Part shown: piece after piece, positions 3,066 through 64,000 of the stretch | Position numbering within the stretch: position 1 is the first letter of the stretch | How the letters are laid out: every line of letters begins with the position of its first letter | Source of the DNA: Escherichia coli | Lineage (GTDB): Bacteria > Pseudomonadota > Gammaproteobacteria > Enterobacterales > Enterobacteriaceae | Length of the DNA stretch: 64,000 nt | Assembly: GCF_024700885.2 (NCBI RefSeq) | Contig: NZ_CP117016.1 | Direction: 5' to 3' (one strand) | Program-made: the position numbers and the translations under genes | Notes under the pieces: model-generated | Told to the model about the DNA's origin: nothing | What the model saw: only the letters and a program-made list of their open reading frames with translations | The model's database searches: none

Positions 3066-4166
3066 TCAGGCAAATATCGTCATCAAATAGGCGGCAAACA
3101 GTGCGAGATGCGCTGCGCCATTGAGCACGTTAGTACGTCCGGTGGAGAAGGAGATATGGCACAGCACTAAAGAGGCCACCATCACCACCATTTCTGGCGC
3201 ACCAAGTGCAAACTGCAATTCGTTACCCGTCATAAAGGCAATTAGCGTGACGACAGGTACGGTAAGCGAAATGGTTGCTAACACTGAACCAAAGAACAGA
3301 TTCATCGCGCGCTGGACCTGGTTGTTCAACACTGCTTTTAACGCACCTAAACCTTCCGGCGACAGAATCAACAGAGCCACCAGGAAGCCAGTAAAGGCGA
3401 CAGGGGCATTCATGCTGTCGAGCAATGTCTCCAGTGGGCTGGCGTTCATTTTGGTCACCGCAATAACGGCAATCAGATGGACAATCAACCAGATAGCATG
3501 CCACAGGCTGCTATGGGCAGACGGTTTACCGTGGTGCGGGTCGTCATCATCACTGTCATCTTCGTGCTCGTAGACAAATAAACTTTGATGCGTTTTGGTC
3601 TGGATCAGCAAAAATACGCCATACATTGCCGCAGAAATTAATGCTACCAGTAACGCCTGACCGGTTGAAAAATTCGCCGCAGGCAGAGCCATTGGAAATA
3701 CCAGTACGATTATCGCCAGGGGGAACAGCGCAATTAAATACTGCTTGATACCAAACAGATTCATATATTGGGTGGCAAACTTACGACCGCCCAACAATAA
3801 TGAAAAGCCAACCAGCCCACCGGTAACAATCATAATGATTGAATAGAGCGTATCACGCATTAGCGTTGGTGCGGCGTCGCCGGTTGCCATTAAAGCTGAA
3901 ATCAAACTGACTTCAAGAATAACCACTGAAAGGCTAAGAATAAGCGAACCGTAAGGTTCTCCCAGGCGATGGGCTAATACGTCCGCATGACGGACAACAC
4001 TAAAGGCGCTACTTAAAATACCAATAAGAGCAAGAAGATTGATGGCAATGACCACTGGTAGTGTCTGGCTGCTTCCCCACAGGAACAGCACTACCAGCGC
4101 CAGAACCGGGAAAATAAGCGAAGTCTCCTTGTGGCGGGTTTTTACCGCCTCTTGAGCATTTGACAT
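3066..4166 (-). CDS. chaA: Ca2+/H+ (Na+/H+) antiporter ChaA
   Basis: Polytopic membrane ORF; start moved to the internal ATG at 4166 (MSNAQEAVKTRHK..., 366 aa) because the 29-codon upstream extension of the track ORF is low-complexity with no RBS. Confidence 0.85.
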   Translation of the reverse strand: MSNAQEAVKTRHKETSLIFPVLALVVLFLWGSSQTLPVVIAINLLALIGILSSAFSVVRHADVLAHRLGEPYGSLILSLSVVILEVSLISALMATGDAAPTLMRDTLYSIIMIVTGGLVGFSLLLGGRKFATQYMNLFGIKQYLIALFPLAIIVLVFPMALPAANFSTGQALLVALISAAMYGVFLLIQTKTHQSLFVYEHEDDSDDDDPHHGKPSAHSSLWHAIWLIVHLIAVIAVTKMNASPLETLLDSMNAPVAFTGFLVALLILSPEGLGALKAVLNNQVQRAMNLFFGSVLATISLTVPVVTLIAFMTGNELQFALGAPEMVVMVASLVLCHISFSTGRTNVLNGAAHLALFAAYLMTIFA

Positions 4167-22351: not shown

Positions 22352-22442
22352 CCAGAATTTTTATCTACACTTAAGTTAATTCTGACAGGCGCAGGTGGCA
22401 ATAGCATGCCACTATTGAGTAAAGCCAGTCAGGGGAGAGAAC

Positions 22443-23456
22443 ATGACGCAGCCATTGGTCGGAAAACAGATTCTCATTGTTGAAGATGAGCAGGTATTTC
22501 GCTCGCTTCTGGATTCGTGGTTTTCCTCATTGGGAGCGACAACGGTACTGGCGGCTGATGGGGTGGATGCCCTTGAGTTGCTGGGAGGTTTCACTCCAGA
22601 CCTGATGATATGTGATATCGCGATGCCACGAATGAACGGGCTTAAACTGCTGGAACATATACGCAACAGAGGTGACCAGACACCGGTTCTGGTGATATCT
22701 GCCACTGAAAATATGGCAGATATTGCCAAAGCGTTACGTCTGGGCGTTGAAGATGTTTTGCTGAAACCAGTTAAAGATCTGAATCGCTTGCGCGAGATGG
22801 TTTTTGCCTGTCTCTATCCCAGCATGTTTAATTCCCGCGTTGAGGAAGAGGAAAGGCTTTTTCGCGACTGGGATGCAATGGTTGATAACCCTGCCGCAGC
22901 GGCGAAATTATTACAGGAACTACAACCGCCGGTTCAGCAGGTGATTTCCCATTGCCGGGTTAATTATCGTCAATTGGTTGCCGCGGACAAACCCGGCCTG
23001 GTGCTTGATATTGCCGCACTTTCGGAAAACGATCTGGCATTTTATTGCCTTGATGTCACCCGAGCTGGACATAATGGCGTACTTGCTGCCTTGTTATTAC
23101 GCGCATTGTTTAACGGATTATTACAGGAACAGCTTGCACACCAAAATCAACGGTTGCCAGAGTTGGGCGCGTTATTGAAGCAGGTAAACCATTTACTCCG
23201 TCAGGCCAATCTGCCGGGGCAGTTTCCGCTATTAGTTGGCTATTATCATCGCGAACTGAAAAATCTCATTCTGGTTTCTGCGGGGCTGAATGCGACGTTA
23301 AATACCGGCGAACACCAGGTGCAAATCAGTAATGGTGTTCCGTTAGGCACTTTAGGTAACGCTTATTTGAATCAATTGAGCCAGCGATGCGATGCCTGGC
23401 AATGCCAAATATGGGGAACCGGTGGTCGGCTGCGCTTGATGTTGTCTGCAGAATGA
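22443..23456 (+). CDS. rssB: RpoS-degradation adaptor/response regulator RssB
   Basis: 337-aa ORF with N-terminal receiver domain (ILIVEDEQVFRSLL...); downstream of rssA. Confidence 0.85.
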   Translation: MTQPLVGKQILIVEDEQVFRSLLDSWFSSLGATTVLAADGVDALELLGGFTPDLMICDIAMPRMNGLKLLEHIRNRGDQTPVLVISATENMADIAKALRLGVEDVLLKPVKDLNRLREMVFACLYPSMFNSRVEEEERLFRDWDAMVDNPAAAAKLLQELQPPVQQVISHCRVNYRQLVAADKPGLVLDIAALSENDLAFYCLDVTRAGHNGVLAALLLRALFNGLLQEQLAHQNQRLPELGALLKQVNHLLRQANLPGQFPLLVGYYHRELKNLILVSAGLNATLNTGEHQVQISNGVPLGTLGNAYLNQLSQRCDAWQCQIWGTGGRLRLMLSAE

Positions 23457-23657
23457 GCAAACGATAACGCGGGCTAAATTTGCATTACCAGCTAATGTCG
23501 GCTGGTGGTACTATCGTCGCCATTCGTATAAGTAATTGTCTTAATTATGCTAACTCGCATCCTTTTCAGAACTTAGCCCCTTCGGGGTGCTGATATACTG
23601 GGATGCGATCCAGAAATATGAACACGTTCAAAACACGAACAGTCCAGGAGAATTTAA

Positions 23658-56352: not shown

Positions 56353-56991
56353 ATGAAGATGAAAAACATGTCTGAAGTGTTGACCCAAGAAAAGCTTATT
56401 TTTGTTGCCCAGAGACTAAATGCCCTCGCGCAGTCAGGCCTGACCTATTCAAAAGACGTCTTTGACAAGGAACGCTATGAAGCCTTGCGTGAAATTGCCG
56501 CTGGACTGCTGAGTTCGCAGTTTGATATTAGCCGCAATGATTTGTTTCATGTATCGGAAACGGGTTACGCGACGCCCAAAACAGATGTGCGTGCGTTTAT
56601 CCTGCGTAATAATCGTATTCTGATGGTGAAAGAGGCTGCAGATGGATTATGGAGTCTTCCTGGCGGATGGGCAGATGTTGGAGATACACCTTCTGAAGCT
56701 GTGCGTCGAGAGGTCGAAGAAGAAACCGGATTAAAAGTCAGAGTGACTAAACTATTGGGAGTTTGGGATCGTAATCTTCACGGCCATCCGCCTTTACCCT
56801 GGCATGTTTACAAGCTGATTTTTCTCTGTGAAGAAGTAGGTGGCAGCCTGTCAATCAGCCATGAGTCACTCGATGCTGATTTTTTTGATGTCAACGACCT
56901 GCCTGAATTGTCGCTTTCAAGAATTGTGCCTGAGCAGATTGCTGTCAGCCTGAGAGTAGCGAAAGGTGATGAAAAAACATGGTTTGATTAA
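56353..56991 (+). CDS. NUDIX hydrolase with Nudix_N-type N-terminal domain (prophage cargo)
   Basis: Nudix box GGWADVGDTPSEAVRREVEEETGL (Gx5Ex7REUxEExGU); N-terminal ~60 aa resemble the Nudix N-terminal extension of ADP-ribose pyrophosphatase-type enzymes. Start may be 56359 or 56368. Confidence 0.8.
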   Translation: MKMKNMSEVLTQEKLIFVAQRLNALAQSGLTYSKDVFDKERYEALREIAAGLLSSQFDISRNDLFHVSETGYATPKTDVRAFILRNNRILMVKEAADGLWSLPGGWADVGDTPSEAVRREVEEETGLKVRVTKLLGVWDRNLHGHPPLPWHVYKLIFLCEEVGGSLSISHESLDADFFDVNDLPELSLSRIVPEQIAVSLRVAKGDEKTWFD

Positions 56992-57020
56992 CTTTCTTCT
57001 GCAACCATTAAGGAATGGCA

Positions 57021-57659
57021 ATGATATTCAACGCTAAGGGTTTTTTATTCGATATGGACGGTACGCTGGTTGATTCAACAGCCGTAGTGGAAAGCGTCTG
57101 GAGAGATTTTTGTGCAGAATACGGTCTTGATACTCAGGCTGTGATTGCTTACGCACACGGGCGGCAAACGATTGATACACTGACGCATTTTATTGGTGCA
57201 GGTGAGAAAACCAATAAAATCGCGGCCTCACTCGAAGAGGTTGAAATCAACACGACAGAAGGCGTTACTGAAGTAAAAGGGGCCGCTGCACTCTTATCAA
57301 AACTGCCACCGGATAGCTGGGCACTTGTTACTTCTGCAGGCAGAATGCTTGCCGAAAACAGGATGAAAGCGGCTAATCTCCCCTTACCCATAGTAATGGT
57401 GTGTGCAGAAGATGTAATGACGGGAAAACCAAGTCCCGAGGGTTACATCAAAGCAGCTTTGGCTTTGGGCCTTGAGCCTGGTGAATGCGTGGTATTTGAG
57501 GATGCATCTGCGGGTATAAAAGCAGGGCTGGCAAGTGGAGCTTCGGTAATAGCTGTTCAGCCTGACGCTCTGGGATCATCTGAAGCCCATGCCGTCAGCG
57601 AGCTGTCTGACATTATGGTCAAGATTTCCGGAGAACGTTTCAATATCATCTGTGGTTAA
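57021..57659 (+). CDS. HAD-superfamily phosphatase (beta-phosphoglucomutase-like subfamily)
   Basis: Motif I FDMDGTLVDS, motif II VTSAG, motif IV EDASAGIKAG; ATG at 57021 is 6 nt after AAGGA; 29 bp downstream of the Nudix gene. Confidence 0.8.
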   Translation: MIFNAKGFLFDMDGTLVDSTAVVESVWRDFCAEYGLDTQAVIAYAHGRQTIDTLTHFIGAGEKTNKIAASLEEVEINTTEGVTEVKGAAALLSKLPPDSWALVTSAGRMLAENRMKAANLPLPIVMVCAEDVMTGKPSPEGYIKAALALGLEPGECVVFEDASAGIKAGLASGASVIAVQPDALGSSEAHAVSELSDIMVKISGERFNIICG

Positions 57660-58012: not shown

Positions 58013-58223
58013 TTTCATATTGGCGAGGTGACGGGAGTTAAGTAGAATGGCTGCGGGTGCTTGAGGCTATCTGTCTCAGGCATGAACACCAAAGGCAGAT
58101 AGAGAAAAGCCCCAGTTAACATTACGCGTCCTGCAAGACGCTTAACATTAATCTGAGGCCATATCTATGCTCTACACACGTAGGTTAGCCTCTTACGTGC
58201 CGAAAGGCAAGGAGAAGCAGGCT

Positions 58224-58379
58224 ATGAAGCAGCAAAAGGCGATGCTAATCGCCCTGATCGTCATCTGTTTAACCGTCATGGTGACGGCACTGGTAACGAG
58301 GAAAGACCTCTGCGAGGTACGAATCCGAACCGGCCAGACGGAGGTCGCTGTCTTCACAGCTTACGAACCTGAGGAGTAA
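58224..58379 (+). CDS. hok: Hok/Gef-family type I toxin (51 aa), near-identical to HokD/RelF
   Basis: MKQQKAMLIALIVICLTVMVTALVTRKDLCEVRIRTGQTEVAVFTAYEPEE; the in-frame upstream extension in the track (from 58167) is not the toxin start. Confidence 0.85.
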   Translation: MKQQKAMLIALIVICLTVMVTALVTRKDLCEVRIRTGQTEVAVFTAYEPEE

Positions 58380-61165: not shown

Positions 61166-61188
61166 CCCCGCCGCCTGGCGGGTTTTTT
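61166..61188 (+). terminator. Rho-independent terminator downstream of the Q-like gene (tR'-like)
   Basis: cccgccgcctggcggg hairpin followed by TTTTTT. Confidence 0.65.
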
Positions 61189-61310
61189 ATGACTGAAATC
61201 GCGTCAGTACAGTAAACGCGCTGGTGGCGGTGAATACCTGTCTTTCAGCTTGCTGGCTTTTTCGACAAGAGTTATTGGTGTGTCACGTTAACCGGAAAAG
61301 GGAAAAAGAC

Positions 61311-61508
61311 ATGCTAAAACAGCAGGATATGACAGAAACCGCCAGAGTGGTGTTTAATGAATTAAGCGTTACCGAACCGGCGACAGTCGGGGAGATAGCG
61401 CAGAATACTTACCTTTCACGCGAACGCTGCCAGTTAATACTGACCCAGCTGGTTATGGCGGGTCTGGCAGACTATCAGTTCGGTTGTTACAGACGCCTTC
61501 AGTCCTGA
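61311..61508 (+). CDS. Small hypothetical protein (65 aa)
   Basis: ATG at 61311 after AAGGGA (MLKQQDMTETARVVFNELSVTEPATVGEIAQN...); ends inside a terminator hairpin. Confidence 0.4.
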   Translation: MLKQQDMTETARVVFNELSVTEPATVGEIAQNTYLSRERCQLILTQLVMAGLADYQFGCYRRLQS

Positions 61509-61518
61509 AGGCTTTTTT
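61494..61518 (+). terminator. Rho-independent terminator
   Basis: gccttcagtcctgaaggc hairpin followed by TTTTTTATTT. Confidence 0.65.
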
Positions 61519-61658
61519 ATTTGTGGTAAATGGGCGGCTGGTGGGTGTTAGGGGCACCCACCAGCCATCTGCTCATGCGTTGGGTTCACAAGCAAACCTC
61601 AGGCCCACTGCTTTGCGCAAAAGCAGAATGAGCCTATCAGAGACAGGCTTAATGATCC

Positions 61659-62708
61659 ATGCTTAATACTGTAAAAATATCCAGTTGTGAGTTAATCAAC
61701 GCCGACTGCCTGGAATTTATCCGGTCGTTACCCGAAAATTCTGTTGACCTGATAGTCACGGACCCGCCGTACTTTAAAGTGAAGCCTGAGGGCTGGGATA
61801 ACCAGTGGAAGGGCGACGATGATTACCTGAAGTGGCTGGACCAGTGTCTGGCGCAGTTCTGGCGGGTGCTGAAACCTGCCGGAAGTCTTTACCTGTTCTG
61901 TGGTCATCGCCTGGCATCTGATATCGAAATCATGATGCGTGAACGCTTCAGTGTGCTGAACCATATTATCTGGGCGAAGCCGTCCGGACGCTGGAACGGA
62001 TGCAACAAGGAAAGCCTGCGGGCGTATTTCCCCGCCACAGAGCGCATTCTGTTCGCGGAACATTATCAGGGGCCGTATCGTCCGAAAGATGCCGGGTATG
62101 CGGCGAAGGGCAGTGCACTGAAACAGCATGTGATGGCCCCGCTGATTTCTTACTTTCGTGATGCGCGCGCGGCCCTGGGGATAACGGCAAAACAGATTGC
62201 AGATGCCACAGGAAAGAAAAACATGGTGTCGCACTGGTTCAGTGCCAGTCAGTGGCAGCTACCGAATGAAAGCGATTATCTGAAATTACAGGCGCTGTTT
62301 GCCCGGGTGGCAGAAGAGAAGCATCGGCGTGGTGAACTGGAAAAGCTCCACCACCAGCTGGTGGATACGTATACCTCACTGAACCGGCAGTATGCGGAGC
62401 TGCTGAGTGAATATAAACATCTGCGGCGGTATTTTGGCGTGACGGTGCAGGTGCCGTATACCGATGTGTGGACGCATAAACCGGTGCAGTTCTATCCCGG
62501 GAAACATCTGTGCGAAAAACCGGCAGAAATGCTGCAGCAGATAATCAGCGCAAGCAGTCGTCCGGGTGACCTGGTTGCAGATTTTTTCATGGGGTCGGGT
62601 TCAACGGTAAAAGCGGCGATGGCACTGGGGCGTCGTGCGATTGGCGTTGAACTGGAGACCGGACGTTTTGAGCAGACAGTCAGGGAAGTTCAGGATTTAA
62701 TCGTTTGA
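61659..62708 (+). CDS. Orphan DNA methyltransferase (beta-class N6-adenine/N4-cytosine type)
   Basis: Motif IV DPPY (LIVTDPPYF) near the N-terminus and AdoMet motif I FFMGSGST near the C-terminus (beta-class order); no adjacent restriction endonuclease gene. Confidence 0.8.
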   Translation: MLNTVKISSCELINADCLEFIRSLPENSVDLIVTDPPYFKVKPEGWDNQWKGDDDYLKWLDQCLAQFWRVLKPAGSLYLFCGHRLASDIEIMMRERFSVLNHIIWAKPSGRWNGCNKESLRAYFPATERILFAEHYQGPYRPKDAGYAAKGSALKQHVMAPLISYFRDARAALGITAKQIADATGKKNMVSHWFSASQWQLPNESDYLKLQALFARVAEEKHRRGELEKLHHQLVDTYTSLNRQYAELLSEYKHLRRYFGVTVQVPYTDVWTHKPVQFYPGKHLCEKPAEMLQQIISASSRPGDLVADFFMGSGSTVKAAMALGRRAIGVELETGRFEQTVREVQDLIV

Positions 62709-62757
62709 AACGGATGAGATTGCAGAATTAATTACGCACCATTATTATTCTGCTTCC

Positions 62758-62833
62758 GGCCCTTTAGCTCAGTGGTGAGAGCGAGCGACTCATAATCGCC
62801 AGGTCGCTGGTTCAAATCCAGCAAGGGCCACCA
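62758..62833 (+). tRNA. Prophage tRNA with CAU anticodon (Ile2/lysidine-type, ileZ-like; Met not excluded)
   Basis: 76 nt folding into a cloverleaf by hand: acceptor GGCCCTT/AAGGGCC, D-stem GCTC/GAGC, anticodon loop CTCATAA, T-arm GCTGG-TTCAAAT-CCAGC, 3' ACCA. Confidence 0.8.
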
Positions 62834-62933
62834 TCACAAACCGCCATTAGCTTATCAGGAAGAGCAGACGACACGATAACAGGGTTGTTGGTGCGGGGGC
62901 GGGTCCCCGATGGCGGTCCATTATCGGTATTCA

Positions 62934-63010
62934 GCGTTGTTAGCTCAGCCGGACAGAGCAATTGCCTTCTAAGCAATCGGTCACTGGTTCGAATCCAGTA
63001 CAGCGCGCCA
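62934..63010 (+). tRNA. Prophage tRNA-Arg (UCU)
   Basis: 77 nt: acceptor GCGTTGT/ACAGCGC, D-arm TAGCTCAGCCGGACAGAGCA, anticodon loop CTTCTAA, T-arm ACTGG-TTCGAAT-CCAGT, 3' GCCA; related to argU-type tRNAs. Confidence 0.8.
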
Positions 63011-63117
63011 TATTCATTCTTCCAGATTCCTTTCGGCAGAGCCTTATACTGAAATATACCTGGCTCAGGATATTGTTGAAAATATTATATGTTTGTCAAA
63101 AATAAAAGTTCTGTTAA

Positions 63118-63474
63118 GTGTTGATTGAGTGTTTGTTATACGGTCTAATGGTTTTTTCAGCATTAAATATTTATCATTCATATGGTGTGGGTAGAGTGAA
63201 TATTGATGAGGCGTCGGGGTGTTTCATCCTTAGGCAGCGTATTGATATAGTCAATGCAGAACGAGCAAAGGCCTTCAGCCGTTTGACAGTTTTGTTCTGT
63301 ACTCCTGATCGTCTTTCGGGAAGAGACGTTATTATTCTGAATAGTGATGCTATACAGAGGGTTTGCGATGAGTTCATGGTGGCTAATTCAGAATTATTTG
63401 CTCTTGTTCAGGAGTACAACAGAATAGCCAGGACCTGTGGTATGGATGAACTTCGGATTACTCATCTGGGGTAG
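63118..63474 (+). CDS. Hypothetical AT-rich cargo ORF (118 aa) in the post-tRNA slot
   Basis: ORF directly downstream of the tRNA pair; low GC; no recognisable motif (MLIECLLYGLMVFSALNIYHSYGVGRVNIDEASGCFILRQRIDIVNAERAK...). Start uncertain (alternative Met at 63148). Confidence 0.4.
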   Translation: MLIECLLYGLMVFSALNIYHSYGVGRVNIDEASGCFILRQRIDIVNAERAKAFSRLTVLFCTPDRLSGRDVIILNSDAIQRVCDEFMVANSELFALVQEYNRIARTCGMDELRITHLG

Positions 63475-64000
63475 ATACATATCTGGATTATCACCGGTTA
63501 CGGTAAAAAGTGATTGCTTACTGTTTTTGTGAATGGCATTGCAGCAGCCGGATAATGTCAGTGCTGGCTGACGGTGTGCTGGTGGCGGGTGTGGTGGTTG
63601 CTGCTTTCCCGTTGCTGAAAAAGAAAACGCCAGACTGTTAGCCGGGTATCAGTTAGCGGGAGAAATTTTTAAATACTTCACAATTCAGGCGGTTGACTGT
63701 TGTCTGGTTTGCGGGGAGTTTGTTAAAAGAAACTGGCATGGTGAATCCCCCTGTGCGGAGGGGCAATCAGCGAGTAGGTATATGGGATAATCGCGGATTC
63801 AGGTGCTGGTACTGAATTCACCGGGAGGCACCCGGCACCATGCAATGGCACATAGCGCCACTCTCCAGCCCCTCTCCGGAGGGGCTGTTTATATTGATTT
63901 TGTCAGATGTGAGTAAACTCCTTATGGACTTTGTTGTTTTAGCCCATAAGGACATATTTGCAGAGTGCAACGGTTATTAAAGCATTCATTCAATACGTTA

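Follow-up and report, generated by a model that had tools for sequence, protein, structure and literature searches.

What does a lambdoid prophage of Escherichia coli carry in the position that holds the Shiga toxin genes stxAB in Stx-converting phages? The question is raised by a 64,000-nucleotide (nt) stretch of E. coli DNA (contig NZ_CP117016.1 of RefSeq assembly GCF_024700885.2; the whole of this stretch is referred to as the window), which includes the late regulatory part of a lambdoid prophage integrated beside ompW, the gene that adjoins the prophage in the annotation of a related strain. This part has the layout of an Stx phage, namely Q, the terminator tR', a small open reading frame (ORF), a DNA methyltransferase gene, ileZ, a decayed argN, argO, cargo, an STnc100 small RNA (sRNA) and, on the minus strand, iraM (Table 1). 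A preliminary description, made from the letters of the window alone, had drawn attention to an AT-rich ORF of 118 amino acids (aa) lying directly after the tRNA genes. We find that the slot holds ORF92, which judging from its conservation is a real gene of 92 aa and not 118, and which is a cargo gene in an exchangeable slot of Stx-type lambdoid prophages.

The stx slot and its cargo

The position of the cargo was established by blastn comparison of the Stx2a phage Stx2_EH2201 (LC567829) with a strain that is identical to the window over 62700-64000. The phage has the order Q, orf65, methyltransferase gene, ileZ, argN, argO, stx2A, stx2B, STnc100, iraM (minus strand), nanS-p (an esterase gene annotated as yjhS) and holin gene, and its flanks are the same in kind and order as those found here. 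Across the left flank the two are homologous at 92% identity from window position 61168 to 63018, so that the match extends 8 nt beyond argO; it is lost there and picks up again at 63678. The interruption spans exactly 63019-63677, indicating that 659 bp in this prophage replace the 1368 bp of stx2AB and placing the ORF in the toxin position as had been proposed. The region is also AT-rich as first described, with a GC content of 0.34-0.42 across 63000-63500 compared with 0.50-0.57 in the flanks; stx2AB is likewise AT-rich, and rich in rare codons.

Only part of the replacement is peculiar to this prophage lineage. The ORF at 63510-63641 consists of the 3' two-thirds of tciB behind a new 5' end, and the lineage-specific segment is therefore just 63019-63541; from 63542 onwards the DNA is homologous (93%) to tciB of phage JLK-2012 (JQ347801), which sets the right breakpoint. 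This segment was found in only one of 50,697 phage records. The tciB-derived ORF matches phrog_1470 (TciB-like) only at profile positions 23-51 of 54, and tblastn indicates that TciB residues 23-51 are retained at 93% identity, the first hydrophobic segment having been swapped for 11 unrelated residues; the ORF does not encode a full-length TciB/DUF3927 protein with both hydrophobic segments. Its nucleotide diversity (π, for which 62 full-length copies of the block were used) amounts to 0.0106, double the value for ORF92, which suggests that it may be a remnant and not a working gene. The tciA-tciB pair fills the same slot in JLK-2012 and in a Citrobacter prophage (locus L006), between the post-Q tRNA genes and nanS-p/holin, and in the Citrobacter prophage a relative of ORF92 lies directly upstream of tciA-tciB. 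In contrast to these systems, the window has no tciA, and its tciB has lost the first 22 codons. ORF92 also occurs independently of tciA/tciB, since three other loci that carry it (L003, L004 and L098) have neither.

On its left the cargo directly follows argO, the last tRNA gene of the island, and on its right the landmark is the STnc100 sRNA, which ends in a terminator (63866-63887; terminator scan). The corresponding element lies 75 nt past stx2B in the Stx2a phage, a location downstream of stx2B that has also been published (PMC12370729). The iraM-like gene, which is convergent to the cargo, is likewise found downstream of stx2B in that phage. STnc100 is present once in the window, once in the Stx2a phage and five times in another E. 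coli prophage, where four copies stand in tandem; positions recorded elsewhere are 3665-3877 and 5637-6616 in L004 and 6707-6918 in L014. These elements look like repeated borders at which cargo cassettes are swapped, and each of their terminators would halt transcription unmodified by Q. The contents of the slot differ between phages, being stxAB, tciAB, or an AraC-type regulator gene followed by ORF92, and the stx position behaves like a site of exchange, with argO as its left border and an STnc100 element as its right border. The regulator of the last arrangement, which directly precedes the ORF92 allele of L004 (4254-4979, plus strand; phrog_1450), is of the helix-turn-helix type and presumably resembles the prophage-borne Psr/PatE regulators of enterohaemorrhagic E. 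coli.

The cargo may also be compared with lambdoid "morons" such as lambda bor and lom, or the lc porin gene with IpeX of phage PA-2/DLP12. Morons are extra genes in the late operon region that have a foreign base composition, are dispensable for growth and are swapped between phages; those that have been named have known products and their own promoters. ORF92 is like them in a base composition that departs from the phage backbone (the GC content of third codon positions is 0.42 in ORF92 compared with 0.49-0.60 in neighbouring genes) and in its placement as cargo, here between argO and the STnc100/iraM/nanS-p block. In the literature on Stx-phage tRNAs, morons and TciA/TciB we found nothing on this ORF.

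ORF92 and its product

The 118-codon frame of the preliminary description is present in the window (63118-63474, GTG start). Taken by itself an open frame of this length in AT-rich DNA is not significant, and the case for a gene beyond chance therefore rests on conservation and not on length. We compared the window allele with those of L003 and L004, the products of which have 61-64% amino acid identity to that of the window and share with it the GTG start, the stop and the length of 92 codons, without insertions or deletions. The pairwise ratio of nonsynonymous to synonymous substitution rates (dN/dS) is 0.24-0.28 at a dS near 1, indicative of purifying selection on ORF92. The frame is intact in all 81 near-identical copies sampled from related viral contigs, in which five synonymous and three nonsynonymous sites are polymorphic, and its π of 0.0053 is tRNA-like and the lowest of the non-RNA segments, that of the leader being 0.011. 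Codon 22 (63259-63261) reads GAA, GCA or GGA, specifying E, A or G, in copies that have 97-99% identity elsewhere. No other ORF92 site has three variants, and this one may mark a contact residue.

A longer gene, of 118 or 108 aa and with a hydrophobic N-terminal segment serving as membrane anchor, is improbable. The frame is indeed open from 63118 in this allele, and forms of 108-118 aa are used by some gene callers and by PHROG 2873, but both L003 and L004 have in-frame stops upstream of the GTG of ORF92. The extension is moreover 3.5 times more diverse than ORF92 (π 0.018 versus 0.005), its variants altering the amino acid sequence so that some 80 near-identical copies yield nine translations, of which one is broken by a stop, and the distant homologues are 91-95 aa in length. 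The open frame reported earlier therefore stands as such, but only its last 92 codons (63196-63474) appear to be coding.

We consider it highly improbable that ORF92 is not a gene at all, being either a chance open frame in an AT-rich spacer or the reflection of a signal on the antisense strand. Start, stop and length are kept at about 60% identity with dN/dS near 0.25, homologues are detected at the protein level down to 33% identity and for the plus frame only, and the AlphaFold2 model described below is confident. What could be said for such a view is that the NCBI Prokaryotic Genome Annotation Pipeline (PGAP) calls nothing in any near-identical RefSeq genome sampled, and that the antisense frame, which shares wobble positions with ORF92, has few stops; these stops, however, fall at differing places between alleles. 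An antisense ORF of 67 aa (63174-63377) was rejected as a gene for the same reason. PGAP does call the L003 allele, as a coding sequence of 92 aa (WP_001017777.1), and the exact protein of the window is on record for E. coli O104:H4, where it is termed hypothetical (AFS57527.1).

The predicted product is acidic (isoelectric point 5.3), begins with the acidic sequence MNIDEASG, and has no signal peptide, hydrophobic N-terminus or membrane segment. The AlphaFold2 monomer (predicted local distance difference test score 83.6, predicted template modelling score (pTM) 0.69) is an antiparallel hairpin of two 32-residue helices, the predicted elements being helix 3-35, strand 44-48, helix 50-81 and strand 87-91. 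A GS-linked tandem model keeps a pTM of 0.66 despite its 30-residue linker, and residues 44-48 and 87-91 become strands in it, which suggests a dimer; on these models the product is probably a homodimer. The most conserved positions are the loop TPDR-SG together with R23, N64 and Y74-N75.

ORF92 matches PHROG 2873, a family of unknown function, over its full length (E 1.7e-70, profile positions 1-108). No match was obtained in Pfam (with the single sequence or a 10-member alignment), in NCBIfam, in the PDB (by sequence or profile) or, for three alleles and at E<=1, among the PADLOC-DB defence models. Foldseek searches of the PDB, AFDB50 and BFVD returned only the protein's own uncharacterised family and generic hairpins; the named hairpins (EmrA, TraM, prefoldin and HR1) all had E>0.1 and every match outside the family had E>0.001. 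These searches uphold the earlier remark that the ORF has no recognizable motif, and those of PHROG, NCBIfam and Pfam did not identify it as a conserved late-region protein of known function, an identity that the preliminary description had also considered. PHROG 4827, a family of about 96 aa that is likewise of unknown function, shows weak profile similarity (E 2e-5), the same length and a predicted hairpin; its proteins are however found in tail/baseplate modules, not in the Q-to-lysis slot, and the homology is marginal.

The slot might suggest a counterpart of Stx, a secreted toxin or virulence effector, which we judge very improbable. Only the stx-slot position and an stx2A-like content of rare codons speak for it. 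The protein is acidic and helical, matches no toxin family or fold, and shows no similarity to the A or B subunit of Shiga toxin or AB5 toxins by Pfam, PDB or Foldseek; a signal peptide and a toxin fold, both raised at the outset as features to look for, are absent from it. In addition, 24% of complete E. coli genomes, whatever their kind, contain the DNA. Compared with stx2AB, the cargo differs in consisting of one 92-aa helical protein and the tciB remnant, with neither an A nor a B subunit, a signal peptide or homology, and it stands behind a decayed argN.

The IraM anti-adaptor is also a small, prophage-borne cytoplasmic protein and belongs to the same island. ORF92 is not IraM, as the PGAP label "IraM" met with beneath the match belongs to the adjacent minus-strand gene, and its identification as an anti-adaptor of the IraM/RssC kind was rejected on the absence of an NCBIfam match and on family membership (PHROG 2873 versus 4407). 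The protein inhibited by IraM is RssB, and the presence of the chromosomal rssB (~22440-23460) in the same window is a coincidence of the chromosomal map.

Expression and possible role

Position suggests how ORF92 would be expressed, and control by Q, like the virulence or defence role that the preliminary description had associated with genes in this slot, is inferred for it from position. The late promoter immediately after Q would be the main source of transcripts, which would reach ORF92 by Q-antiterminated read-through, as for stx2. We regard this route as the likeliest because of the location of the gene, the presence of tR' (a strong terminator in the terminator scan), the absence of terminators from the methyltransferase gene to ORF92, and the failure to find a convincing promoter nearby. 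If Q were absent, transcripts would end at tR' or, when started locally, at the STnc100 terminator. Translation would benefit from ileZ and argO, because ATA, AGA and AGG make up 8.6% of ORF92 codons, the corresponding shares being 1.0% in the window's chromosomal genes and 7.2% in stx2A. The cytoplasmic protein would then act by binding a host or phage protein, and would not be an enzyme, a toxin or a membrane protein. A protein-binding cargo factor in the stx slot, transcribed with the late operon, is overall the best explanation that we can offer and one that we favour by a small measure; the anatomy of the locus is secure, the mechanism a weak inference.

Several points weigh against this explanation. 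The promoter scan found no excess of sites over shuffled sequence. An upstream TTGATT-17-TCTAAT that is common to L004 has a -10 hexamer without the essential A2, which makes it an imperfect and at best a possible promoter. Only L003 has a strong Shine-Dalgarno sequence (AGGAG) ahead of the GTG, that of the window allele being weak. Rare-codon richness may reflect low GC, since the other alleles have only 1-5% of these codons, and the L003 allele has no adjacent tRNA genes. The dimer model is only a proxy, with inter-chain contacts uninspected, and protein binding is the default reading of ORF92 because the helical hairpin is a generic fold.

It is unlikely that ORF92 instead serves the lytic cycle, in late transcription, lysis timing or virion release, and is not cargo for lysogenic conversion. 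A conserved place in the phage program could be read from the family, as five separate lineages (the window, L003, L004, L006 and L098) with differing Q and holin types have a member of at least 40% identity located between Q and lysis genes, and no own promoter was detected. Lambdoid phages appear to manage without the gene, however, as only one of the 50,697 deposited phage genomes carries it. Furthermore, stxAB or tciAB can stand in its place, its AT content exceeds that of the phage backbone, and it matches no known lysis or late-regulation family.

Protection of the lysogen by a single gene, whether by superinfection exclusion, defence or anti-defence, appears quite unlikely. No allele has a PADLOC match, there is no membrane segment, unlike in most exclusion proteins, and the overall dN/dS is that of purifying and not diversifying selection. 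Such genes do commonly occupy variable prophage slots, and a second hotspot of the same prophage family is occupied by IteA/IteS in one strain and by a NUDIX-HAD pair in the window; the E/A/G variation at residue 22 among near-identical copies is also what might be seen at a contested interface. ORF92 is, in sum, not a toxin, IraM, a known defence protein or a known lysis accessory protein. A protein-binding cargo factor of the late operon remains our preferred account, and a further reading may be put forward with no great probability: ORF92 may be a hitherto unrecognized protein of lysogenic conversion, a dimeric hairpin binder that adjusts a host regulator or shuts out a rival phage, forming one island with STnc100 and the IraM-like gene.

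Neighbouring elements and distribution of the family

The elements flanking the cargo are collected in Table 1. A rare-codon tRNA pair of the Stx-phage type had been recognized in the preliminary description, and ARAGORN, Rfam and comparison with the Stx2a phage agree in identifying it as ileZ and argO. The first gene, with a CAU anticodon, is nearly identical in alignment to the first tRNA gene of the ileZ-argN-argO trio of phage phi296, and is taken to be the lysidine-type tRNA-Ile2 (ileZ) because PGAP names it tRNA-Ile in genomes identical over the stretch. After lysidine modification tRNA-Ile2 reads ATA.

The spacer between the two had been suspected of being a decayed third tRNA gene, a view supported by its end-to-end alignment with argN, although its extent is 62834-62933 (100 bp) and not, as first given, 62836-62933 (98 bp). 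It yields no tRNA call with ARAGORN or with Rfam at E<=1, and compared with phi296 and L004 it has a scrambled anticodon arm and an insertion of 3 nt. An intact tRNA-Arg(TCG) gene, in a spacer of 97 nt, was called by ARAGORN in about 10 of 80 sister loci from viral contigs. In the remaining loci argN is decayed, and its G-run, of 5 to 13 residues, differs in length between near-identical copies (for example L041 and L092), which is slippage in an unconstrained pseudogene. The π of the argN remnant is 0.094, compared with 0.004-0.006 for the flanking tRNA genes.

Table 1. Features of the late regulatory region of the prophage, in window coordinates
Feature	Coordinates	Strand	Evidence or remarks
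Q-like late antiterminator, 273 aa	60263-61084	+	phrog_127 and phrog_25523 "anti-termination protein Q-like", E 1e-110; PGAP "antitermination protein"
tR'-like intrinsic terminator right after Q	61167-61190	+	CCCGCCGCCTGGCGGG then TTTTTT (terminator scan)
Conserved ORF, 65 aa	61311-61508	+	phrog_331, E 1e-37; between tR' and methyltransferase gene
DNA methyltransferase, 349 aa	61659-62708	+	phrog_6025 and phrog_67, DNA methyltransferase
tRNA(CAU), ileZ type (tRNA-Ile2)	62758-62833	+	ARAGORN; Rfam tRNA model, 72.5 bits; PGAP tRNA-Ile
Decayed argN (tRNA-Arg UCG) pseudogene	62834-62933	+	Aligns end to end with argN of phi296 and L004
tRNA-Arg(UCU), argO type, reads AGA/AGG	62934-63010	+	ARAGORN; Rfam, 68 bits; PGAP
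Cargo segment: AT-rich leader, ORF92 and 67 bp	63019-63541		523 bp; specific to this prophage lineage
Upstream open extension, 26 codons, apparently non-coding	63118-63195	+	In-frame stops in L003 and L004
ORF92, 92 aa, GTG start	63196-63474	+	Conserved gene; predicted helical-hairpin protein, PHROG 2873
5'-truncated tciB (DUF3927) remnant, 43 aa	63510-63641	+	PGAP "DUF3927 family protein"
STnc100-family prophage sRNA	63707-63896	+	Rfam RF02076, 132.4 bits (gathering score 47)
iraM-like gene, 3' end (leaves the window)	63922-64000	-	PGAP "anti-adapter protein IraM" in AR_0069

Upstream of the tRNA genes, the Q-like gene and the DNA methyltransferase gene that had been described there were both recovered by phrog matches. 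The ORF of 65 aa has its own terminator (61495-61512), and the same ORF is found in Stx2a phages. The methyltransferase gives adenine-methyltransferase matches in NCBIfam, all of them below threshold, and the same gene precedes the tRNA genes in the Stx2a phage. Its identification with the rRNA methyltransferase of Stx prophages was rejected, as the latter is an MT-A70 protein sited elsewhere in the prophage (PMC10810198). On the other side of the cargo, the iraM-like gene could be delimited from strain AR_0069. The sequence of this strain over 62700-64000 is that of the window, and its IraM is encoded at L001 7223-7558 on the minus strand, equivalent to window positions 63922-64257.

Two further observations concern the same prophage. 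Between the replication genes and DUF968/RusA, the plus strand at 56353-57659 encodes a NUDIX-like protein (weak match to PADLOC PDC-S07, E 7e-10) and a HAD-family hydrolase, a possible defence candidate, and the location is a second variable hotspot because a closely related prophage of AR_0069 has the anti-phage pair IteA/IteS there. In the nin-like region, a gene for a Hok/Mok-like host-killing peptide lies at 58167-58379 on the plus strand (phrog_251, E 5e-32).

The ORF92 family is very small and confined to prophages of the Enterobacteriaceae. An exhaustive hidden Markov model search of 1.84 billion representatives yielded only 21 clusters, none of them named, with the relatives at 33-44% identity (91-95 aa) coming from Citrobacter and metagenomic contigs. 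Members with at least 40% identity, from Escherichia, Citrobacter and one sequencing-run contig, sit downstream of a Q gene, and more distant members are located elsewhere. Within E. coli, ORF92 DNA is present in 1311 of 5426 complete genomes, in 126 of which the best match is just 60-80% identical.

The main allele is left uncalled by PGAP in every near-identical RefSeq genome sampled, and pangenome or association studies that build on RefSeq annotation will therefore miss it. Pending a phenotype the practical importance of this is modest; it is nonetheless an annotation gap that conceals a selectively maintained gene in the best-known virulence slot of E. coli phages. The picture of an exchange slot in which ORF92 takes its turn with other cargo helps to account for the gain and loss of stx.

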